From Candidatus Auribacterota bacterium (lineage in GTDB: Bacteria > Auribacterota > JAFGBW01 > JAFGJP01), in assembly GCA_023144635.1 (NCBI GenBank), contig JAGLFH010000037.1, forward strand, positions 26,489 through 90,488: a DNA stretch of 64,000 nucleotides. The letters are read 5' to 3'. Below the pieces are notes generated by a model that was given only the letters and a program-made list of their open reading frames with translations, made no database searches and was not told the DNA's origin. Position numbers and translations under genes: made by a program. Shown piece by piece: positions 3,646 through 61,104 of the stretch (positions are counted from its first letter, which is position 1; each line of letters begins with the position of its first letter).

Positions 3646-4422
3646 ATGGCTTCTTTTTATTTTACTAATAGTATTAAATTCAAAATATGCTGTTTTTTTA
3701 TTGTAGCTTTAGTCTTGTTTACCGCACCTTTTACCTCCACTGCCAACAACACATTTCCTGTTAAGACCATTGTTATTGATCCTGGACACGGCGGAAAGGA
3801 CCAAGGAGCATCAGGCCCCAGCGGAATAGCTGAAAAAGAGGTAACTCTTGATATTTCCCTAAAACTTAAAAAAGAGCTGGAAAAAACTAAAAAATTCAAG
3901 GTTTTTATGACAAGGACTACCGACAAGTTTGTTTCTTTAAAGAAAAGGAAAAAAATTGCAAAGCGATATAAACCAGATGTTTTAATAAGCATACACTGTG
4001 ATGGTAATAAGGACAGAGATATAAATGGTACAGCAGTTTATATTCTTTCAAAAAAAGGCGAAAATTTTACTATTAAACGATCCCTCACACAGGGTGATTA
4101 TGTTTTTAACGGAAACTACATGAATAACTCACTTGCAGACGCAAATCATACCATGGCAAAAACCATGAAGCAAAGCCGTAAATTGGCTGATATAACATTA
4201 AAATATCTTCTGGCACAATTAGGAACAAAAGATATGCATGTAAGAAAAGCCGGCTTCAAAGTATTAAAGATCCTAGATGTTCCTTCAATACTTATTGAAG
4301 TGGCTTTTATTACAAACTGGTGGGAAGAAAAACAGCTTAAGAAAGATAAATTCCGTCAAAAAGCTGCGGTAGGTATAAGAAAAGCACTTCTTGAGTTCTT
4401 TAAAAATAATCCACATAATTGA
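3646..4422 (+). CDS. N-acetylmuramoyl-L-alanine amidase (Amidase_3 family)
   Basis: 258 aa with signal peptide; VIDPGHGGKDQGASG ... VFMTRTTD ... DVLISIHCD are the Amidase_3 zinc-site motifs. Confidence 0.85.
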   Translation: MASFYFTNSIKFKICCFFIVALVLFTAPFTSTANNTFPVKTIVIDPGHGGKDQGASGPSGIAEKEVTLDISLKLKKELEKTKKFKVFMTRTTDKFVSLKKRKKIAKRYKPDVLISIHCDGNKDRDINGTAVYILSKKGENFTIKRSLTQGDYVFNGNYMNNSLADANHTMAKTMKQSRKLADITLKYLLAQLGTKDMHVRKAGFKVLKILDVPSILIEVAFITNWWEEKQLKKDKFRQKAAVGIRKALLEFFKNNPHN

Positions 4423-5513: not shown

Positions 5514-5622
5514 CCACAGCCTGTCTCGCCATAATCTACCAAAGGTGGACGAAGGCGGGGGGGAGACACATGAAAGCGTAGTGCGTGTGATGCGTTGAGA
5601 GTGGTGCGTTCAAGGTGCTTCC

Positions 5623-5666
5623 TTTCACGTGACCACGTTGACACGTGGAACGTGACTCACGTGGCG
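5623..5666 (+). repeat. CACGTG-rich 41-nt repeat module (copy 1)
   Basis: ctttCACGTGaccACGTtgacACGTGgaACGTGactcACGTggc; 41/41 identical to 37382-37422. Confidence 0.7.
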
Positions 5667-5774
5667 GAAGCAAATATTAATATTTCACTACGGAAAAGCA
5701 CGAAAAAAACTAAATTTAAAAAAACCTTTTCCTAGATTCCTGCTTCCGCAGGAATGACGTACGTTTTATACTTC

Positions 5775-5850: not shown

Positions 5851-5918
5851 TTTTTATATTTTTCTTTTCTTTTTTATTTTATTTTAATGTCGTCGAAGAC
5901 ACCATTATTTTTATTTTT

Positions 5919-5950
5919 TTTACATGGGCGAAAGATTTTTCGCCCCTTGT
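5919..5950 (+). repeat. REP-like hairpin unit
   Basis: tacatGGGCGAAAgattTTTCGCCCct; core identical to 55368-55395. Confidence 0.7.
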
Positions 5951-6023
5951 ATGTTTTCACAATTCAGGTAACATCAGAGAAAATATGGGACGCAGATCAA
6001 TAGGATTAAGAGCTTTATTATCT

Positions 6024-6060
6024 TTCACACGGACAGGGACAAGCCCTGTCCCTACATACT
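6024..6060 (+). repeat. REP-like hairpin unit
   Basis: cacacGGACAGGGacaagCCCTGTCCctacatac. Confidence 0.7.
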
Positions 6061-6147
6061 TTTACTTTCTATGGTTCATGACTCTGTGTTCTCTGTGAAC
6101 GTGCTAAAAGTCCGCCGGGGCGGGTGGTGTGAAAGGCTTTTGCTTTT

Positions 6148-11700: not shown

Positions 11701-11750
11701 TCTTTTGAAGACGAAGATAATCAAGATTAATGAGTGAATTTAATAATATA

Positions 11751-11791
11751 CTACAAAGGACAGCATTCAAATGCTGTCCTTTGTAGTTTTT
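11751..11791 (+). terminator. intrinsic terminator-like hairpin (16-bp perfect stem, 4-nt loop, T5)
   Basis: ctacaaaggacagcat-tcaa-atgctgtcctttgtag followed by ttttt; ends 8 nt before the rlmN ATG. Confidence 0.6.
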
Positions 11792-13717: not shown

Positions 13718-13733
13718 GGACAGAGGGAAGAAC

Positions 13734-13790
13734 AGTTAATTGGTTTACTTGTTAAATAGTTAACTGGTTCAAGGAGCACTGAAGCGCGAT
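13734..13790 (+). repeat. intergenic repeat module (CAGTTAATTGGTT...GTTAACTGGTTCAAGGAGCACT)
   Basis: About 55-nt module also at 50633-50690 (+) and 46503-46557 (-). Confidence 0.6.
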
Positions 13791-13846
13791 AATTATAAAA
13801 AAAAAGATAACTGTGTAAGGAAAAATTACAATTTACATTTTGCGTG

Positions 13847-13885
13847 GATCCCGCGGTTAAACACGCGGGATGACATACGTTTTGG
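13847..13885 (+). repeat. hairpin repeat module (GATCCCGCG...CGCGGGATGACATACGTTTT)
   Basis: 8-bp stem atcccgcg/cgcgggat; second copy at 43281-43316 has the same stem and a different loop. Confidence 0.55.
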
Positions 13886-25365: not shown

Positions 25366-25499
25366 TACAGACACAAGACTCAAGCAAAACCTCAGAATCC
25401 AAAGACCTAAAACAAAGAAGAAATAACAAAAGGCACAAGACTCAAAAGCGTTGTTCGTCGTTCGTGATTCGGGGTTCGTGAATTGAGCGCTCCGCGATA

Positions 25500-25660
25500 T
25501 AAAATAAAAAGCAGAGAACAGAAAAAAATCGAGGGATGAAGGACGAGGGACAAAAAAACAGAAGATGCACGATACAAGATACACGATAAATAAAAGCAAA
25601 AGACTTTAGACTCAAGGGGAAAAGCACAAGATAGAAAAGAATAATAAAGAATAAATGTCC
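25500..25660. repeat. T-depleted purine-rich low-complexity tract
   Basis: agcagagaacagaaaaaaatcgagggatgaaggacgagggacaaaaaaacagaagatgcacgatacaagatac...; several GGA motifs. Confidence 0.45.
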
Positions 25661-25723: not shown

Positions 25724-25767
25724 CACCCCGCAGGAGTAACCAAGTAACACCTACGGGGTGGTTTTTT
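25724..25767 (+). terminator. terminator-like hairpin repeat (CCACCCCGCAGG...CCTACGGGGTGG plus T6)
   Basis: caccccgcagg-agtaaccaagtaaca-cctacggggtgg-tttttt; second copy 47979-48027. Confidence 0.45.
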
Positions 25768-25810: not shown

Positions 25811-25872
25811 CACATTCTACTTTTTATGTTTTACAAGGGCGGTTCGCTTATTTTACACCAAATCCTTGCCCT

Positions 25873-25919
25873 CATGAACCACGTGGGGTTCATGACCGTA
25901 AACCCTACGTGGTTTACGG
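25873..25919 (+). repeat. double-hairpin repeat module (CATGAACC...GGTTCATG / CCGTAAACC...GGTTTACGG)
   Basis: Related copies with the same stems and different loops at 33927-33961 and 46408-46431. Confidence 0.5.
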
Positions 25920-25967
25920 CTATCGCAGATCCGCCAGCGCTTTGAGGAGGACTCACTTTTTATTTTG
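25920..25967 (+). repeat. intergenic repeat module (CTATCGCAGATYCGCCAGCRCTTTGRGGAGGACT)
   Basis: Three copies in window (25920, 28432, 41733 inverted), each preceded by a GC hairpin and containing GGAGGACT followed by a T-run. Confidence 0.6.
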
Positions 25968-28431: not shown

Positions 28432-28480
28432 TCGCCCCTATCGCAGATTCGCCAGCACTTTGTGGAGGACTAACTTTTTT
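28432..28480 (+). repeat. intergenic repeat module (CTATCGCAGATTCGCCAGCACTTTGTGGAGGACT)
   Basis: cgcccctatcgcagattcgccagcactttgtggaggactaactttttt. Confidence 0.6.
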
Positions 28481-28483
28481 ACC

Positions 28484-28520
28484 GTTTTACAAGGGCGGAT
28501 TTAGAATCCGCCCCTACATA
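28484..28520 (+). repeat. REP-like hairpin unit
   Basis: acaaGGGCGGATTtagAATCCGCCCctacata; identical core at 55528-55548. Confidence 0.75.
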
Positions 28521-33715: not shown

Positions 33716-33990
33716 GACTCAATAAAACGTGGTGCGTGATGCGTTGTGAGTTATGCGTTCAAGGAGCACTGCGTAATAAAAAACGTCATTCGTCGTTCGG
33801 GATTCGTGGTTCGTTCAAGGAGCGCTTCCGCCTTCGTTAAAACTATGGCGAGACAGGAAAGCGAGATAAAAAAACATTAAAAGCGTGATTCGGGGTTCGT
33901 AGTTCGTAAATGGAGAGAACACAGAGTCATGAACCACGTCCTAAACCACATAGGGTTCAGGATAAACAGAAAAAGTAAAAGGTAAAATGT

Positions 33991-34025: not shown

Positions 34026-34231
34026 ATAAAATGTGAAAGTAAGAAAGGGTTACAGCGTTCAAGGTTATTCGATGGAGTTTATTCTGAGCGGAGTCTAAGA
34101 TCCATTCACGAAGAACACGAAAGACAAATTACGAATACCCCTATTTTCTCCCCCTCTGTCCTCTGCTTTCCGGGCTTTTTCTTCAGTCTTGAGTCTGGTG
34201 TCTTGAGTCTTGAGTCTTACATAAAAATCCC

Positions 34232-37240: not shown

Positions 37241-37381
37241 AAAAGTGTTGAGTGTTAAGTTTTGAGTGATGAGTTGAAGGAGCACTTCGTGCGAAGATAG
37301 ATACAAGATACAGGATAAAAACAAGAACAGAAGACAGAGGACAGAAAGAATAGAATTACATTTAACAAATTATTGAGGTTG

Positions 37382-37424
37382 CTTTCACGTGACCACGTTG
37401 ACACGTGGAACGTGACTCACGTAG
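37382..37424 (+). repeat. CACGTG-rich 41-nt repeat module (copy 2)
   Basis: Identical to 5623-5663; lies between purL and purF. Confidence 0.7.
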
Positions 37425-37547
37425 CACCCTACTGCTTAGCTTTGCAAGCAAAACTAAGCAAAAATCAGAGTTCGCAATAACGAAATTTTACTTTTATATT
37501 TAACTAACAACTAACTTGAAAAACAATTTCTACTAAAAGCTAAAATT

Positions 37548-41732: not shown

Positions 41733-41795
41733 AAAGGTAGTCCTCCACAAAGCGCTGGCGGATCTGCGATAGGGGCGATTCATGAATCGCCCAAT
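41733..41795 (-). repeat. intergenic repeat module (same family, inverted) with perfect 20-nt palindrome gggcgattcatgaatcgccc
   Basis: Plus strand aaaaggtagtcctccacaaagcgctggcggatctgcgataggggcgattcatgaatcgccc; lies between purH and purD. Confidence 0.6.
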
Positions 41796-43084: not shown

Positions 43085-43154
43085 GATAAAAAAAGCAAGA
43101 AAGTCGTGAGTCAAAAGTCCATAGTCAATGGTTAGAGGATAAAAGGTAAAATAT

Positions 43155-43190
43155 ATGTAGGGTTCTGGCCTGCCTGAACCGTGTAAGATA
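43155..43190 (-). repeat. REP-like hairpin unit (inverted orientation)
   Basis: atGTAGGGTTCtggcctgcctGAACCgtgtaag. Confidence 0.6.
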
Positions 43191-43200
43191 GTGAAAAAGT

Positions 43201-43235
43201 AAGTAGGGGCGCTGCTTGACTGCGCCCGTGTAAAA
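43201..43235 (-). repeat. REP-like hairpin unit (inverted orientation)
   Basis: aaGTAGGGGCGCtgcttgactGCGCCCgtgtaaaa; same GGGCGC/GCGCCC stem as 25785-25805 in opposite orientation. Confidence 0.65.
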
Positions 43236-43280
43236 ATAGCTGCCTGAACCGTTGTTAAACTGTAAAAATAAATTTATCTA

Positions 43281-43316
43281 GATCCCGCGATCAAGTCGCG
43301 GGATGACAACGTTTTA
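43281..43316 (+). repeat. hairpin repeat module (GATCCCGCGA...TCGCGGGATGACAACGTTTT)
   Basis: 9-bp stem; upstream of purE. Confidence 0.55.
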
Positions 43317-43427
43317 TTTTTTGTTCTTTTACTATATTGTGCTGTAAAGCACACCAATAACTTTAAGTACTTTAAACTTTAGTGCACTTTAGGCACTTTT
43401 ATATGTTTGAAAAAAGGAGGATTTAAT

Positions 43428-45371: not shown

Positions 45372-46214
45372 TTATTCTAAAAAAACTTTTACCTGTGATC
45401 CTCTACCGTGAGCAAATGAAAAAACAACATCACTTGCACCTTGAGGAATTGGTACATTAAAAATATTTTTTCCCTGAGATAAACGTCCATTCTGAGCATA
45501 GGGATGCCATGCGCCATTATAATAAACTTTAATCGTATTTATTATTATTGCATGCTTTTCAGTAATATTGACATCTACAATTATCTTTGAAAAACTTCTG
45601 CCACCCGTATAAGCACTTACATTATACTTTCCAACTTTTTTATCATAATTAGCCTTAGTAAAAGAAGCGATCAAAACCTGCGAACTATGTTTTTTTACAA
45701 TAGGATTGTGACTTGATTTCTGACGTGTACAACCGGGACAACTGCTATTATTTGAACCATACCATCTTTTGCAATGAGTACAACGTATACTGGGGTTTGA
45801 AGAATGAGAAAGACTTACATCAAAACCTTGTCTGCAATGCGGGCAATTAACAAAAAATTGATCAGTGTTCAGTTTTCTTCCGCAATTAACACAAAAAGAA
45901 CTATTAGACTTATTACGCGCTCCACAATTCTGGCAAAGAGCAATCGTATTACTTGTGTTTAAACCAAAATTTCTGTGACAATGCGGACAATATACATTTT
46001 GAGAATATGATGAATTTGTTGATGATGTTAGTTTTGCACCACACCCCGCACAATAATTAGCATTAGATTTATTCTGGTAACGGCAGCTCGGGCATTCATA
46101 ACCCGATCGGTTACTTTGTGATCCTTGATTAAATATATCCAGCCATGAATTGTCTGCAACAACAACAGGCACTATTAAAAAACAAATTAATAAAGTAAAA
46201 ATTATTTTTTTCAT
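45372..46214 (-). CDS. secreted protein with four to five tandem zinc-ribbon (CxxC...CxxC) modules and C-terminal beta-rich domain
   Basis: ORF track starts at 46295 inside a repeat region; ATG at 46214 follows GGAAGGA SD and gives signal peptide MKKIIFTLLICFLIVPVVVA; repeated CPSCRY...CAGCG, CPHCHR...CQNCG, CVNCG, CPHCRQ...CTHCKR...CPGC. Confidence 0.55.
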   Translation of the reverse strand: MKKIIFTLLICFLIVPVVVADNSWLDIFNQGSQSNRSGYECPSCRYQNKSNANYCAGCGAKLTSSTNSSYSQNVYCPHCHRNFGLNTSNTIALCQNCGARNKSNSSFCVNCGRKLNTDQFFVNCPHCRQGFDVSLSHSSNPSIRCTHCKRWYGSNNSSCPGCTRQKSSHNPIVKKHSSQVLIASFTKANYDKKVGKYNVSAYTGGRSFSKIIVDVNITEKHAIIINTIKVYYNGAWHPYAQNGRLSQGKNIFNVPIPQGASDVVFSFAHGRGSQVKVFLE

Positions 46215-46275
46215 ATCAAATCCTTCCTTCGGGGTTTGCCGCGTCGCATCTCCTCGCAATGACAACATTTTACGT

Positions 46276-46312
46276 TTTATAGCGGGAGGAGGCAAGCACC
46301 TCCCCTACATAC
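46276..46312 (+). repeat. REP-like hairpin unit
   Basis: tagcGGGAGGaggcaagcaCCTCCCctacatac. Confidence 0.55.
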
Positions 46313-46395: not shown

Positions 46396-46502
46396 CATTT
46401 TACTTTCATCATGAACCCTATGTGGTTCATGCCCCTTTTGTGTCCTTCCCTTTGATTTACTTTATTCACTCAGGACAGGATGGCGGTGAATTTTATAATA
46501 AT

Positions 46503-46557
46503 CGCACGAAGTGCTCCTTGAACCAATTAACTTTTTAACCAGCTAACTAATTAACTG
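46503..46557 (-). repeat. intergenic repeat module (CAGTTAATTGGTT... family, inverted)
   Basis: Reverse complement reads cagttaattagttagctggttaaaaagttaattggttcaaggagcacttcgtgcg. Confidence 0.6.
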
Positions 46558-46683
46558 TTTCCATCTATGTCCGTGCTGAATTTTCATTCTTTTTAAACTT
46601 CTTATACATAGATATAGACGATCAAAACACATAAATATTTCATAAAACAACAGAAATTCGCTGGCAAGGTCAAAGATTAAGAA

Positions 46684-47891: not shown

Positions 47892-47978
47892 AATATGTCT
47901 TCCTTTATAACTGATTTATATTATTGATGCAATAAATAAAAAGATCAAAAAAAGTGACTAAAATACGTTAAAGTTTCT

Positions 47979-48027
47979 CCACCCCGCAGGAGTAAACAAA
48001 TTACACCTACGGGGTGGTGGTCTTTTT
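47979..48027 (+). repeat. terminator-like hairpin repeat (second copy, plus orientation inside a minus-strand operon gap)
   Basis: ccaccccgcaggagtaaacaaattacacctacggggtggtggtcttttt; between nrdR and glyA. Confidence 0.45.
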
Positions 48028-48082
48028 CAAATTACACAAGTAAAAAACAAATTCTAAATATCAAATTAGATTCAAGACATAT

Positions 48083-48120
48083 CATACACGGGCGTATTGC
48101 AATACGCCCCTACTAACTTT
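48083..48120 (+). repeat. REP-like hairpin unit
   Basis: cacGGGCGTATTGCAATACGCCCctactaac; identical to 13990-14009. Confidence 0.75.
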
Positions 48121-48155
48121 TTACTTTTCCATTTGTGGCTAATTGCCTTTTGTTC

Positions 48156-48195
48156 TTTCACACGGACAGGCACAGAGACCTGTCCCTACATATAT
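48156..48195 (+). repeat. REP-like hairpin unit
   Basis: cacacGGACAGGcacagagaCCTGTCCctacata; identical core at 55483-55504. Confidence 0.7.
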
Positions 48196-48261
48196 TTTAT
48201 TTTTTATTTTAATGTCGTCGAAGGCTCCTTTCACGAACACCAAACGACGAACCACGAGTTT

Positions 48262-50484: not shown

Positions 50485-50625
50485 TGATATAAAAATCAGA
50501 TGACAGAAGACAGAGGGCAGATAACAGAAAACCACATGATTCGTCTTTGGCGAAAACGTGGCTTCGCAGAGGATAGAAGATAGAAAAAGCAAGAGAAAAA
50601 CACAAGATTAAGGCAAAACAGAAGA
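50485..50625. repeat. T-depleted purine-rich low-complexity tract
   Basis: gatgacagaagacagagggcagataacagaaaacc...ggatagaagatagaaaaagcaagagaaaaacacaagattaaggcaaaacagaagaaaaag. Confidence 0.45.
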
Positions 50626-50632
50626 AAAAGAT

Positions 50633-50690
50633 CAGTTAATTGGTTAACTCATTAAAAAGTTAACTGGTTAAAGGAACGCTCCGCTGATTA
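50633..50690 (+). repeat. intergenic repeat module (CAGTTAATTGGTT... family)
   Basis: cagttaattggttaactcattaaaaagttaactggttaaaggaacgct. Confidence 0.6.
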
Positions 50691-50953
50691 TTATAATAAT
50701 GACCAAGGAAAAACACGAGAGGAAAAGTAATTCGTGGTTAATTAATATTATATCGCCGAAAGCTCATTAATTTCACATTTTCTGGTTTTTTTACCTGGCT
50801 TCCGCGGTCTCTCCCAACAAGATGGCGGACAAGTAAACTACGTGATGACAACATTATACGTTTTACTTTTATCTTTTAACCATTTACTATGGACTATTGT
50901 CTATCGACTATTTTTGTTTTTTCTATTATCTGCTATCTGCCTTCTGATTTCTG

Positions 50954-52805: not shown

Positions 52806-54659
52806 TCAGAACATCTGTTCTTCCTCTTCAAATTCCTTAATTTTTTCCTCATATACTTCTGTTGTTTTTCCAAGTTCTTCATAACCAGTATCTATTAGAC
52901 CCTGTAATTCCTGAACGAACCTTGATAGTTCGGATATAGCACTTATATTTGAAGAGTTAGAAGCATCTATAAGAGCTTCCATCTTTTCTTTTAAAACTTT
53001 TTCTCTTTCCTCAATCTCTTTTTCCAGTAATGGGATTTTGTTTTTATATGGAGTCAATACTCTTGAACGCCTATTTATAAATTCTGCCCGAGCTTTCTTT
53101 TTCTGTTTTATTGATACTGATTTATTAATTCCATTTTTATCCTCAGACTTTTCCTTTGTAAGGTCACCGTTAGTATCTCCCCAACCTACTTCATCAAGAA
53201 AATCTTCATAACCTCCATGATAAATAAATAATCCGTTATCGTGAAAAACGATCAGCTTTTTTGCAACCCTATATAAAAACTCTTCATTATGAGTAACGAT
53301 CACTGATGCACCGTCAAAATTATCTACTGCATCTATTATTCCCTCACATGATTCCATATCAAGATGATGGGTAGGTTCATCAAGTAAAAGTACATTTGCC
53401 GGTGTTACAAGCATTTTACCAAGGAGGACACGGCATCTTTCTCCTCCTGATAAAACACTTATTTTTTTAAGAGCATTATCTCCGGAAAACATCATTAAGC
53501 CGCAGATATCCCTGCTTCTTTTGTTATCACTTCCAGATCGGCAGGATAAAATTTCTTCTTCAACACTCAAATCATCTCTTAAGTTTGCAGTGTCACCCTG
53601 CTCAAAATAAGCTTTTTTAGTTTGAGGGTGGTAACGAACCTGACCATTCTTAGGGTTGAGTCTTTCTGCGAGCAGCTTTAAAAGCGTTGTCTTACCTTTA
53701 CCATTTTTTCCGATAATGCAAATTCTATCATTTTTTGCCACAGCAAGATTAAAATTATCTATTAGTTTTGGAGAATCATCGGAATAAGAAAAACTGAGAT
53801 CAGCAATATCCATTACATATTTTGCCGGAAAAGAGGCAAAATTAAAAGAGAACGAAAGAGTTGATATTTTATCCAGTTTTTCCAGCTCCTGCTCTTTTCT
53901 AATTCGCTTTACACGAGATTGTACCAATGATGCCCTTCTCGCTTTGGCTCTAAATTTATTTATAAACTCATTTGTCTTCTTGTGTTTCTTTTCAATATTG
54001 ATACGCTGTTTTTCATAAACCTCTTCTTCTTTTGAGACCCTTTCATAATAATTACCGGTTAAGCCAGTACATTTTTTAACATTTTTTCTATGAATACCCA
54101 CTATATGAGTTACAACGCTGTCCATAAAACATCTGTCGTGACTGACTATTACACATTCACCGCGCCAAGAATTTAAAAAACGTTCCAGCCACCTTATAGA
54201 AACAATATCAAGAAAGTTAGTAGGTTCATCAAGCAATAACAAATTAGGATTTGATACAAGCACTTTTGCAAGATTAAGACGTATTTTATAACCACCGGAA
54301 AATTCCAGAGGATCACGTAAAAAATCCTCTTCAAGAAAACCAAGTCCAGCAAGGACTTTCTTTACTTTCCACTCGTTTAAGTTTTCATGCTTAGGAAGCC
54401 CAAGACAACCTTCTTCAAGAACAGTTTTAGCACTAAAACTTATATGCTGGCTCAAATAACCTATACGGTAGTCTTTTGGAAGACTGATGGTGCCTTTATC
54501 ACAAGGCTCTTTCCCTGTAATCAAGTTAAAGAGTGTAGTCTTGCCGTGCCCATTTCTGCCTACAAGACCAACACGTTCACGGGGATTGATGCAAAAAGAA
54601 ACATCATCAAAAATAACCTGGTCCCCATATTGTTTGCTGATTTTCTGTATTAAGATCAT
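52806..54659 (-). CDS. ABC-F family ATPase (two ABC domains, no TM domain)
   Basis: 617 aa; two Walker A (GRNGHGKTT, GKNGKGKTT), two signatures (FSGGYKIRL, LSGGERCRV), linker with coiled-coil. Confidence 0.9.
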   Translation of the reverse strand: MILIQKISKQYGDQVIFDDVSFCINPRERVGLVGRNGHGKTTLFNLITGKEPCDKGTISLPKDYRIGYLSQHISFSAKTVLEEGCLGLPKHENLNEWKVKKVLAGLGFLEEDFLRDPLEFSGGYKIRLNLAKVLVSNPNLLLLDEPTNFLDIVSIRWLERFLNSWRGECVIVSHDRCFMDSVVTHIVGIHRKNVKKCTGLTGNYYERVSKEEEVYEKQRINIEKKHKKTNEFINKFRAKARRASLVQSRVKRIRKEQELEKLDKISTLSFSFNFASFPAKYVMDIADLSFSYSDDSPKLIDNFNLAVAKNDRICIIGKNGKGKTTLLKLLAERLNPKNGQVRYHPQTKKAYFEQGDTANLRDDLSVEEEILSCRSGSDNKRSRDICGLMMFSGDNALKKISVLSGGERCRVLLGKMLVTPANVLLLDEPTHHLDMESCEGIIDAVDNFDGASVIVTHNEEFLYRVAKKLIVFHDNGLFIYHGGYEDFLDEVGWGDTNGDLTKEKSEDKNGINKSVSIKQKKKARAEFINRRSRVLTPYKNKIPLLEKEIEEREKVLKEKMEALIDASNSSNISAISELSRFVQELQGLIDTGYEELGKTTEVYEEKIKEFEEEEQMF

Positions 54660-54727
54660 AGGTCAGTATTGTATCAATTCTTTTAAAAATCAAAAAGAAA
54701 TTAAAGGGAAACGGGTTAGATAATTGA

Positions 54728-55174
54728 TTATTCTGTTTTTGGGATATTGGTAAATACTTTTTGGCGGTCAAGAGAATATATCAACTTTGTTTGATCAACA
54801 ATAATTATCATTTTTAGTTTATCTTTTGATTCAAAAGAAAATTCAAAAGTCTCATTTACATTGTTTTCAAAATCAATAGTAAGTGTATTTTTCAACAAAG
54901 AATAAACACCCATTATTTCTTCAGCATATCCATCAAAAATATTTTTTTTCCTGCATTTACCATCTTCCGTAAAAGCATAGGTAGTTACCATATCCAAATC
55001 GCTACCCATTGCATTTGTTTCTACTATTTTCCACGTACCGATAATACTTGCATCTACATTAATTATGCGGGGAGTATCTTTCTTTACTGCAGTTGAAGTG
55101 GAATCGCATCCTTCAAGACAAAAAACAGCAAAAACCATACAAAAAAATACACTTATTATTGTTTTTGGATTCAT
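54728..55174 (-). CDS. putative lipoprotein
   Basis: 148 aa; signal peptide with lipobox-like LEGC. Confidence 0.55.
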   Translation of the reverse strand: MNPKTIISVFFCMVFAVFCLEGCDSTSTAVKKDTPRIINVDASIIGTWKIVETNAMGSDLDMVTTYAFTEDGKCRKKNIFDGYAEEIMGVYSLLKNTLTIDFENNVNETFEFSFESKDKLKMIIIVDQTKLIYSLDRQKVFTNIPKTE

Positions 55175-55365
55175 AACATCCCCTTGAATACTTTATAACT
55201 CTATATGAAATGTATTTTAAACCTTAATTTATATTTTTGAAAGGAAAAACTACTTCACCACGAAGGGCACGCCCGCTTTCGCTAAAGCTTTAGCGAGGCC
55301 TCATTGTCTCGTCGTAGCCTTGGCGTAGAACGGGAAGGAACACGAAGAAAAGCTTTTCTTTTTAC

Positions 55366-55400
55366 ATTACATGGGCGAAAGATTTTTCGCCCCTACTACT
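55366..55400 (+). repeat. REP-like hairpin unit
   Basis: tacatGGGCGAAAgattTTTCGCCCctactac; identical to 5926-5945. Confidence 0.7.
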
Positions 55401-55476
55401 TTTTACCTAGATTCCTGCCTAGCGGCAAGGTCGCTGGCATTCGCAGGAATGACATACGTAATAGTATTTTGTGCTT

Positions 55477-55515
55477 TTACACGGACAGGCACAGAGACCT
55501 GTCCCTACATGCGTT
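55477..55515 (+). repeat. REP-like hairpin unit
   Basis: ttttacacGGACAGGcacagagaCCTGTCCctacatgcg. Confidence 0.7.
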
Positions 55516-55517
55516 TA

Positions 55518-55555
55518 CATTTTACAAGGGCGGATTTAGAATCCGCCCCTACACA
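55518..55555 (+). repeat. REP-like hairpin unit
   Basis: ttttacaaGGGCGGATTtagAATCCGCCCctacacac; directly abuts the previous unit. Confidence 0.75.
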
Positions 55556-55670
55556 CTTTTTACTTCTTACTTTTTTCCTCTGATTCTTTTTTATCCTGTA
55601 AATCCTGTCTAAATTTATAATCATCAGCGAAGGCGGAAGACTCCTTGACCTATCACCTATAACCCATTAC

Positions 55671-56951
55671 CTATGACCTGTTTAACTTTTTTATCAATTT
55701 TCTCCAGATCCTAAATTCTTCAGACAACAAAACTATAGCACCAATTAAATAAAATGATGAAAGTATCCAGAAACTTCCCGGACCATTTCCTTTGTAAGAA
55801 GTCTTTTTTTCTGCCATTACAGGACGTGTCATGCAAAAAAGCATGGCTATTTCACCAAGGCATGATGAATCTGCAGCTTTACTTCCCATCAGGCTTGGGA
55901 TAAGACATCCAAAAGGTGTTGGCCATGAAAAAACTGACGCTTCAAGCATTATTGGAACACTTCTATCAAAACGCCCCATTGTACGTGCTGCACCTACTCC
56001 AAATGCCGATGCAACTGTTCCATAACCAAAAAGAACAGGCCCTGAATCTACATCCTCATATAAACCATTATGTTTAATACTGGCCTCACGATAGCCAGCA
56101 AAAAACCGATCTTCCTGCCAGAAATATTTGTCATGCATCTTAAACCACTTATCAGCCGAGATCATATCAAGTTCTGGTACAAACATAAGTATGCCTGAGT
56201 TACCGCACCCTCTAGCAATGCCAAGAGGACGCGCAGTCTTTTCATCTACTATAAAACCTGGGAGACCTTCATTTGTTAGTGAATATTTCTTTAGGACATC
56301 TATTAATTTACTTTTTAAAGCCGAATGGTCTGTTCCTAATAATTTATCTGCTCTAATAATAGATGCAACAGCCCAAACAACATCATTCGGATAGCATTCA
56401 CCCGGATAATCATCAAGCAAATGAGACGGTGCGTTTAAAAGTTCACGACCAAGAGACGTTGTCTGATCATAAAGCATTTTCCGGTAACGCTTATTACCCG
56501 TTACTTTTTCATAGCTTGATAATCCCATTATTAAAAGCATTCTATAAAAAAGATTTTTTTTAGTTAAATATGAGGATCCCCATTTTTCTTTTACCCAATT
56601 TCCTGTTTTAGGATCAGTGATGACATCTGCTGCAATATCTGCTGTTTTTTGTATTAAAAGAGTTATTTCTTTTATCTGACAAGAATCCTTATCTTTTATA
56701 TGGCTTTGTATTTCTTCTGCAGTTAAAAGATAAAAAACAGATCCGAATATAGGCCATTCTGTTCCTGCCACATCTTCAGAATCAACAGATGAAGCAAATC
56801 CTGTTTCCATATATTTTTTTGCCCATTTTTGATAACGATGCGATGTATTTTTAAACCATGGCAAAGTTATTTTTGGAAACTCACCATTCCTGACATTTTT
56901 ATCAAAATATATTTTAAAAGATATTATTGCAGGATATAGAAGCAAAAACAC
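55671..56951 (-). CDS. hypothetical membrane-anchored protein (start uncertain; possible ATT start at 57044)
   Basis: 426-aa ORF from GTG without SD; the frame stays open upstream to the GH17 stop, with AAGGAG 7 nt before an in-frame ATT that would give MKNIFRNLLKQVGVFKLYSQIIFTFFIIFVAV (classic n-region plus TM). Confidence 0.5.
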   Translation of the reverse strand: MFLLLYPAIISFKIYFDKNVRNGEFPKITLPWFKNTSHRYQKWAKKYMETGFASSVDSEDVAGTEWPIFGSVFYLLTAEEIQSHIKDKDSCQIKEITLLIQKTADIAADVITDPKTGNWVKEKWGSSYLTKKNLFYRMLLIMGLSSYEKVTGNKRYRKMLYDQTTSLGRELLNAPSHLLDDYPGECYPNDVVWAVASIIRADKLLGTDHSALKSKLIDVLKKYSLTNEGLPGFIVDEKTARPLGIARGCGNSGILMFVPELDMISADKWFKMHDKYFWQEDRFFAGYREASIKHNGLYEDVDSGPVLFGYGTVASAFGVGAARTMGRFDRSVPIMLEASVFSWPTPFGCLIPSLMGSKAADSSCLGEIAMLFCMTRPVMAEKKTSYKGNGPGSFWILSSFYLIGAIVLLSEEFRIWRKLIKKLNRS

Positions 56952-60794: not shown

Positions 60795-61104
60795 GAGCTC
60801 TACTATAAAATAAGATCAGTTTTTAGTCAAATACCTATAATAATAATAAACGTATAGGAGTCAAGGGAAGGACACAGAGGGGTTGAGGGAAGAAAAAGAT
60901 AAAAGAAGTGTTGAGTGTTGAGTTAAGGTGCGCAGACGCGCGATATTGTAAAAAAAGAAAAAACAATTTAGCCACGAAGTGGTTCGACTACGCTCACCAT
61001 CCTGAGCAACCTGCAGTGAGCGCAGTCGAACTGAATGAAATGAGTCGAATGGAGACACGAAGAAAAGCAAAAAATAAAATTTGACGGAAAAGGAAAACGT
61101 AAAT

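Follow-up and report, generated by a model that had tools for sequence, protein, structure and literature searches.

A mosaic intergenic spacer with GTAG-tagged REP elements and other repeat modules in Candidatus Auribacterota

The locus

The intergenic spacer described here is part of a 64 kb stretch of DNA from a Candidatus Auribacterota bacterium, called the window in the following, which has a GC content of about 34 %. It comprises 496 bp (55175-55670) and is flanked by minus-strand genes on both sides (Table 1). The stop codon of the gene upstream in transcription (TAG, 55673-55671) is located inside a heptad-repeat module, and this module overlaps the last codons of the gene. Ahead of the downstream gene there is a match to the sigma-70 consensus; the number of promoter-like sites around the spacer is no higher than in shuffled sequences. 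Judged from these positions, the REP cluster probably sits between the end of the upstream gene and the likely promoter of the downstream gene.

The same DNA is present in several ENA, NCBI and Logan assemblies. As the spacer sequence is identical in four independent assemblies (L001, L003, L086 and L087), it is not an assembly artefact. Three of seven assemblies break, end or switch partner inside the spacer, which is the usual behaviour of repeats in assembly. One assembly (L002, 11500-11595) follows the spacer (window 55395-55451) as far as the GTCAT hairpin module and then continues with another flank, similar to the TATCGCAGATCCGCC module; the junction is due either to a mis-join caused by the repeat or to a genuine recombinant variant.

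Table 1 Features of the spacer, its flanking genes and the copies of the heptad/AAGGAG module in the window
Feature	Position	Strand	Remarks
Gene downstream in transcription	54728-55174	-	148-aa DUF5640/lipocalin-like protein
Sigma-70-like promoter consensus match (TTCAAA, 16 nt, TAAAAT)	55214-55241	-	About 40 nt upstream of the ATG of the 148-aa gene; consensus match only
18-nt perfect palindrome TCGCTAAAGCTTTAGCGA	55279-55296		No copy elsewhere in the window (BLAST)
16-nt perfect A/T-rich palindrome AAGAAAAGCTTTTCTT	55345-55360		
REP unit 1	55373-55396	-	GTAG tag and 8-bp stem, 4-nt loop; hairpin GGGCGAAAAATCTTTCGCCC
Member of a second hairpin family, GTCAT-tagged on the minus strand	55407-55459	+	Arms ATTCCTGC and GCAGGAAT, tail GACATACGT
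REP unit 2	55483-55508	-	GTAG tag and 7-bp stem, 8-nt loop; hairpin GGACAGGTCTCTGTGCCTGTCC
REP unit 3	55528-55552	-	GTAG tag (55552-55549) and 9-bp stem, 3-nt loop; hairpin GGGCGGATTCTAAATCCGCCC
A/G-rich linker (sense strand) with degenerate short direct repeats	55553-55613	-	For example CAGGATTTA / CAGGATAAA and AGTAAGA / AGTAAAA; seen directly
Post-stop-codon module	55614-55682	-	Alignment A2, 11 copies in the window
Gene upstream in transcription	55671-56951	-	426-aa protein without Pfam domains
Heptad/AAGGAG module, copies 1-6	5570-5625, 13725-13800, 25440-25500, 33716-33780, 33780-33850, 37241-37300		
Heptad/AAGGAG module, copies 7-11	46490-46570(-), 48205-48261(-), 50620-50700, 55614-55682(-), 60880-60960		

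The three REP units of the spacer

The core of the spacer is a head-to-tail trio of different members of a GTAG-tagged REP family, interspersed with a related hairpin module; a heptad-repeat module precedes them. On the plus strand the three hairpins are formed by the arms GGGCGAAA/TTTCGCCC (55373-55392), GGACAGG/CCTGTCC (55483-55504) and GGGCGGATT/AATCCGCCC (55528-55548), and CTAC follows directly after each of them. Throughout the window CCCCTAC occurs nine times with 2.1 occurrences expected, a number that none of 100 shuffles reached.

The first-pass annotation had reported recurring REP-like cores at 55373, 55483 and 55528, and each of these hairpins indeed possesses an identical twin in another spacer, at 5926-5945 (unit 1), 48164-48185 (unit 2) and 28493-28513 (unit 3), with E values including the flanks of 6e-16, 1.6e-12 and 6e-13, respectively (BLAST). 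The comparison with the other intergenic regions that it had proposed as a check thus returned matches to other spacers (E 6e-16 to 6e-13). Unit 2 and its twin region are 83-85 % identical over 65 nt, unit 3 and its counterpart 95 % over 43 nt. The twin hairpins themselves are 100 % identical, whereas their flanks reach only 70-85 %; perfect hairpin identity beside drifting flanks could point to selection on the hairpin and not to recent transposition. Furthermore, the block 55354-55524, consisting of REP 1, the intervening module and REP 2, aligns with 5909-6071 (E 6e-16), where the middle part is decayed. Since the alignment covers the block as a whole, the two-REP composite has been duplicated as a unit, which means that segmental duplication copies composite blocks.

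GC-rich hairpins between a gene end and the probable promoter of the next gene might be transcription terminators, intrinsic or factor-assisted, several of which in a row would shield the downstream lipoprotein gene from its upstream neighbour, and an attenuation of transcription by REPs has been proposed in a survey of these elements (Di Nocera et al. 2013, PMC3733652). However, both strands of 54600-56000 are free of terminator-like sites (0 compared to 0.9 expected). The stems are followed by GUGUAAAAG on the sense strand and not by a U-tract, and on the other strand the 8-nt sequence CTACATAC separates the stem from a short T run. In addition, a distinct module of canonical terminator-like appearance, CACCCCGCAGGAG...CTACGGGGTGG with a T-run, exists elsewhere in the window (25743-25766 and 47980-48020) and is missing in the spacer. 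Terminators are regarded as a very improbable explanation of the hairpins.

The GTAG REP family in the window

On the minus strand, which for the two flanking genes is the sense strand, a unit measures 24-26 nt and is composed of GTAG, a GC-rich stem of 6-9 bp and a loop of 3-9 nt. Conserved A-rich flanks enclose the unit, GTAAAAGTAT before the tag and GTGTAAAAG after the stem. The window holds 16 GTAG units and one ATAG variant (41770), distributed over 10 spacers in 64 kb. In an alignment of the 16 copies (A1), for which an 8-bp stem was modelled, the four tag positions directly before the stem are conserved in at least 90 % of the copies (G17 and T18) or without exception (A19 and G20), and the two outer G-C pairs show little or no variation. 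Changes on both sides occur at six of the eight stem pairs and 89 % of the cells are paired, which none of 500 shuffles matched and no shifted register came close to. The covariation score of 0.558 compares with 0.161 in shuffles, and about 11 different stems are present among the 16 copies. A covariance model built from A1 (R1) recovered the 16 training copies, among them unit 3 of the spacer with 57.8 bits, as well as the ATAG variant, and no further copies in the window or in 14 kb of additional flank.

All 16-17 copies are extragenic, none of them located in a gene or between divergent genes, and 28 of the 35 GC-rich hairpins of the window fall within the intergenic 16 %. The designation as REP-like units is therefore justified by the GTAG tag, the GC-rich stem with compensatory variation and the extragenic location. 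On the tag, on stem, loop and covariation, and on the dispersed extragenic location, the units belong to the superfamily of GTAG-tagged REPs.

According to the survey, GTAG-tagged REPs are palindromic units of 20-40 bp with an unpaired GTAG-type motif at one end, stems of 6-13 bp and short loops; they form subfamilies with complementary stem changes, contain G-T pairs and are mostly found where the neighbouring genes are co-directional or convergent (Di Nocera et al. 2013, PMC3733652). The unpaired GTAG of the window units abuts the GC-rich 6-9 bp stem with its short loop in the same way (PMC3733652; Nunvar et al. 2010, PMC2817692). The complementary stem changes, the G-T pairs on the tagged strand, the extragenic location in co-directional or convergent gene gaps and the mixing of subfamilies within clusters likewise agree with the survey (PMC3733652). 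In contrast to it, neighbouring units are here all arranged head-to-tail, an arrangement that the survey calls rare in most REP families, and inverted doublets are absent; moreover, the A-rich flanks are conserved on both sides and the stems are highly diverse. The host, whose genome is low in GC, belongs to the Auribacterota, a phylum that does not appear in the available part of the survey (PMC3733652). A literature search for the literal REP strings yielded only unrelated primer matches.

In the window seven of seven adjacent REP pairs are head-to-tail, with a start-to-start spacing of 45 to 146 nt; if orientation were random, chance would give (1/2)^7, or about 0.008. Between co-directional genes GTAG stands on the sense strand in 11 of 12 copies, which are not independent because they are confined to six or seven spacers. 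Counted on the GTAG strand over the window and the metagenome loci, the non-Watson-Crick positions of the stems are G.T in eight cases and A.C in one, the latter being the reverse reading of a symmetric element. CUUG-like loops recur among the units. From these asymmetries in orientation, G.T pairs and loops it follows that the GTAG strand matters as a single strand, be it RNA or ssDNA. The orientation could also follow the replication strand instead of transcription: the REP block on the plus strand (34-44 kb) shows an inverted GC skew too, so that GC skew does not separate the two, and the sole copy against the sense orientation (25785) is compatible with a replication-strand rule.

Other modules of the spacer

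Between REP 1 and REP 2 lies a GTCAT hairpin, the module CTAGATTCCTGC...GCAGGAATGACATACGT, which the first-pass annotation had described as shared with 5731-5768 and enlarged by a nested hairpin in the loop. Its arms and tail are in fact common to 5732-5768, and its 24-nt loop folds into an extra helix of 8 bp (55419-55426 with 55430-55437). The fold of the plus strand is the better one (-21.6 versus -16.9 kcal/mol). Four members of this family were found (5736-5755, 13848-13871, 43282-43304 and 55411-55450); their flanks resemble those of the REPs (TAAAACGTATGTCAT-stem...stem-ATCTAGGTAAA), with the GTCAT tag on the reverse strand. GTCAT hairpins usually lie 25-35 nt from a REP, and the copy at 43282 is inverted relative to the neighbouring REPs. 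Related tails are present at 46255-46283 and 50844-50865.

The perfect palindrome TCGCTAAAGCTTTAGCGA, formerly given as 16 nt long, measures 18 nt. It is situated in a GC-rich segment (55266-55340) with CACGAAG direct repeats at its edges (55259-55265 and 55341-55347), and structure in the surrounding 96 nt (55255-55350) is not significant (z -1.3 and +0.3). In the whole window seven perfect palindromes of at least 16 nt were counted versus 2.0 expected. The A/G-rich linker shows weak matches to other spacers. Apart from the module at the gene end (55614-55682), significant matches elsewhere in the window are confined to 55354-55596, and the 179 bp next to the downstream gene (55175-55353), palindrome included, have no match elsewhere in the 88 kb examined. 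About one third of the spacer is not accounted for by repeats; the earlier view that the region was assembled from modules found singly elsewhere thus applies to the distal two thirds.

On both strands the fold of the spacer is more stable than that of shuffled sequences (z -2.9 and -4.1), and two plus-strand ORFs of 70 and 102 aa span it, as one would expect if the region encoded a single structured non-coding RNA or a small protein. However, Rfam 15 gave no match at gathering thresholds in the whole window and chance-level matches in the spacer at E up to 10, the two ORFs run antisense through the REPs in a place without public gene calls, and the region is conserved in no relative. A single long RNA fold was rejected as well, because the stability derives from independent local hairpins which recur separately elsewhere. 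A covariance-model match to one structured RNA gene was the observation named beforehand as fatal to the mosaic reading; none was obtained and the mosaic reading stands. A single RNA or protein is scarcely credible here.

The heptad/AAGGAG module

The module at the end of the upstream gene is a further repeated element, which the first-pass annotation had missed. It has five 7-nt units ending in GT (AAACAGGT CATAGGT AATGGGT TATAGGT GATAGGT), followed by CAAGGAGT, a GC-rich stretch and GATTATAAA; TRF places a period-7 array at 55648-55679. The 11 copies of this module in the window are about 70 nt long and share an A-rich start, 4-5 units of 7 nt (N5GT) or 8 nt (TAANNNGT), a fixed Shine-Dalgarno-like TCAAGGAGC junction, a GC-rich stretch and TATTATAA. 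The sequence "theme" of the heptads varies from copy to copy. In eight of the 11 copies AAGGAG is located 24-164 nt past a co-oriented stop codon. The module also occurs in L092 (1-70, minus strand) and was seen only in the host lineage and one relative.

In the intergenic DNA of the window the autocorrelation rises from 0.31 at lag 6 to 0.343 at lag 7 and is back at 0.31 at lag 8, and echoes of this peak appear at lags 14 and 21; coding DNA has a 3-nt period only and lacks the peak at lag 7. Many degenerate period-7 arrays of differing heptamers exist in the intergenic regions (e.g. 25562-25588, 34180-34218, 37244-37346, 50497-50529, 50886-50911 and 55648-55679). The TAACTGA repeats of Beggiatoaceae, Cyanobacteria and Bacteroidetes consist of one exact heptamer and are found intergenically just upstream of start codons (MacGregor 2015, PMC4679880). 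Both systems are 7-nt direct repeats restricted to intergenic regions, as seen here in the 55648-55679 array and in the lag-7 periodicity. Unlike the TAACTGA repeats (PMC4679880), the heptamers of the window are degenerate and copy-specific, stand just after stop codons and end in the fixed TCAAGGAGC junction.

Further repeats in the window

Besides the REPs, the spacers of the window contain at least four further repeat families, one of which is the terminator-like module mentioned above. A CACGTG-rich 47-mer is present as a pair with 96 % identity (5619-5665 and 37379-37425), and a TATCGCAGATCCGCCAGCGCTTTG module occurs at 25920-25961, 28438-28479 and 41757-41792. Hairpins of the type CATGAACC...GGTTCATG are located at 25872-25919, 33928-33965 and 46410-46431 as well as in L091 (92-144), and they are shared with a relative of 84 % SHMT identity. 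The longest hairpin of the window by far (11750-11787) has a perfect stem of 17 bp and a 4-nt loop (ACTACAAAGGACAGCAT TCAA ATGCTGTCCTTTGTAGT), with TTTT behind it. Unrelated to the REP family, it is situated in a divergent promoter region, 12 nt ahead of the start of a radical-SAM gene.

The annotated start of a 307-aa gene (45372-46295, minus strand) crosses one REP (46284-46304) as well as a further repeat. Preceded by AAGGAAGGAT and encoding MKKIIF..., an ATG at 46215 looks like the true start; the first 27 codons are probably an artefact that the repeats introduced into the annotation.

Comparison with BIMEs, REPINs and other repeats

The name "BIME-like", which had been given to the spacer, fits its mosaic of REPs with other motifs and does not fit their uniform orientation and irregular spacing. 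BIMEs have defined inter-REP motifs and bind IHF, DNA gyrase or DNA polymerase I. By definition, as stated by Nunvar et al. (2010, PMC2817692), their REPs are regularly spaced and alternate in orientation. As in E. coli BIMEs, REPs and other short repeated motifs are clustered in one intergenic region with a locus-specific composition, here with the GTCAT-type hairpin between two REPs and the heptad/AAGGAG module at the gene end. Unlike in E. coli BIMEs, the orientation is uniform (three of three spacer units and seven of seven window pairs are co-oriented), the spacing is irregular (45 and 110 nt), and unrelated modules, either hairpins or low-complexity sequence, fill the stretches in between. 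Because of the uniform REP orientation the spacer is not a BIME in the strict sense.

A REPIN consists of two inverted REPs forming a long hairpin (Bertels and Rainey, PMC3116915, PMC3337134), and such inverted doublets are regarded as the mobile unit. The elements described here share with REPINs that they are built of REP units, which are thought to be RAYT substrates, and differ from them in that the window is without any inverted REP pair. A CRISPR array was rejected because the units differ from each other and their spacing is irregular. A MITE was rejected as well, since terminal inverted repeats were not seen; among direct repeats, only the CACGAAG pair flanks a segment (55266-55340), and this segment has no other copy.

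Distribution beyond the window and the RAYT question

Metagenomes were scanned with the pattern TAAAA-N3-6-GTAGGGGCG-N10-16-CGCCC-DTRTA, derived from the conserved flanks and the commonest stem base. It matched 30 metagenome contigs with a GC content of 27-66 %, compared to about one match expected by chance, as we estimate from the information content of the pattern. In 29 of the 30 contigs there is a GTAG hairpin whose clean stem measures 6 bp or more, while the match in the remaining one (L111) has one A.A mismatch. In the matching organisms the units often form inverted doublets 20-25 bp apart. One contig of 36 % GC (L119), which also carries GACAGAA-type heptamer arrays, has five exact tandem copies of a 43-nt unit at 3966-4161, each with a GTAG REP (GTAGGGGCTTGATTTATCAAGCCC) and arranged head-to-tail like the REPs of the window.

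A RAYT-like Y1 transposase gene or pseudogene was found on a contig of an unrelated organism (L096, 865-1566). It is accompanied by three GTAGGGGCGGTTCGCGAACCGCCC REPs, one about 55 nt upstream, one inverted just downstream and a third inserted in frame within the coding region. Once the REP-encoded insert had been spliced out, the gene matched PF01797 at 1.3e-8 and, with 79.9 bits, came just below the cutoff of 80 for NF047646 (REP-associated tyrosine transposase). An in-frame stop at 1183-1185 suggests that the gene may be decayed. In this one metagenome contig the same REP architecture adjoins a RAYT-like gene, as in the REPtrons of GTAG-tagged REPs and their RAYT transposases (PMC3733652, PMC2817692).

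In the host, no RAYT or any other Y1 transposase gene was detected in the window or in 14 kb of additional flank, nor in the 88 kb examined. The search comprised precomputed Pfam results on gene calls, hmmscan of 24 window proteins, and phmmer on all ORFs of at least 80 aa; phmmer, seeded with the L096 protein and an approximate sequence of an E. coli RayT, gave no matches in the host organism. GTAG-tagged REPs are accompanied by a cognate RAYT gene that REPs flank in the same genome (PMC3733652); in the window and its 14 kb of flank no such gene was seen. Mobilisation in this genome can thus only be inferred.

Model R1 found no copies in five relatives, and among the related Aureabacteria compared the units are confined to this lineage. 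The nearest homologues of the flanking genes are too distant for a direct comparison of the junction. For the 426-aa gene no homologue above 57 % identity was found in 5.8 billion proteins, with at most 50 % in GTDB genomes, and for the ABC-F gene none above 61 %, save one partial match at 63 %. As there is no orthologue of the focal junction, two other REP-bearing junctions, purD-purE and SHMT-nrdR, were compared instead. The purD-purE gap (43085-43406) measures 322 bp with two REPs, compared to 1 bp in L124 and 122 bp in L127. The SHMT-nrdR gap (47892-48261) measures 370 bp, again with two REPs; here the relatives have a 4-bp overlap (L124) or gaps of 20 bp (L125), 59 bp (L127) and 90 bp (L092). 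All these junctions of the relatives are free of REPs, and the intergenic fraction is 16 % here versus about 5 % in L124. At both junctions the units would accordingly have been inserted and not be ancestral.

Origin and possible function of the repeats

We consider it likely that the spacer is a non-coding junction which was filled by small palindromic repeats through a RAYT-type spread and in which the repeats have at most the role of 3' hairpins. A RAYT-type HUH tyrosine transposase would act, or would once have acted, on the units as single-stranded hairpins and so spread them, and composite blocks would then have been copied by local segmental duplication. Once inserted, they would be transcribed together with the upstream gene and would most likely, at most, slow down exonucleases or attenuate read-through to the next gene, a role that has been suggested for REPs in other organisms. 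Both the mobilisation by RAYT and the role at the RNA level are inferred from the known biology of the family, the strand asymmetries and the one RAYT association elsewhere.

The hairpins and modules might instead never have been mobile and represent host-selected 3'-UTR or intercistronic RNA elements, such as exonuclease barriers, processing sites or binding sites of RNA-binding proteins, which arose by local duplication and were kept for tuning the expression of adjacent genes. The sense-strand orientation in 11 of 12 informative copies, the G.U-compatible substitutions on the GTAG strand only, the recurrent CUUG-type loops, the perfect conservation of the twin hairpins beside drifting flanks and the position of the heptad/AAGGAG module after co-oriented stops in most of its copies would agree with such a selection. 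However, the same architecture is found in unrelated organisms over a wide range of GC content, often as inverted doublets and in one case beside a RAYT-like gene, a mark of a mobile family. The same operons function in close and distant relatives with overlapping genes and without such elements, and about 11 stems in 16 copies argue against one sequence-specific partner. We therefore hold a purely host-selected origin to be unlikely and prefer the spread of REP units outlined above.

A more far-reaching and quite improbable reading takes the modules as a lineage-specific, transcription-oriented 3'-UTR architecture, in which the AAGGAG heptad module at the stops and the head-to-tail GUAG hairpins behind it would together govern mRNA 3'-end stability as well as the release of ribosomes or their re-initiation. 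AAGGAG is described as complementary to the anti-Shine-Dalgarno sequence, and the operons concerned have overlapping genes in relatives. If true, REPs would here have been domesticated into a novel type of modular post-transcriptional punctuation.

The spacer represents ordinary, though unusually dense, selfish or semi-domesticated intergenic repeats and not a new gene or RNA. It extends the GTAG-type REP elements to the Auribacterota, a phylum known only from metagenomes, and reveals a low-GC lineage in which the intergenic DNA has been roughly tripled by the filling of operon junctions with REPs. In practice, such repeats break assemblies and lead to spurious ORFs and wrongly extended N-termini in annotations. 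The uniform head-to-tail and strand-biased layout, finally, offers a clean natural case for asking whether transcription or replication determines the orientation of REPs.
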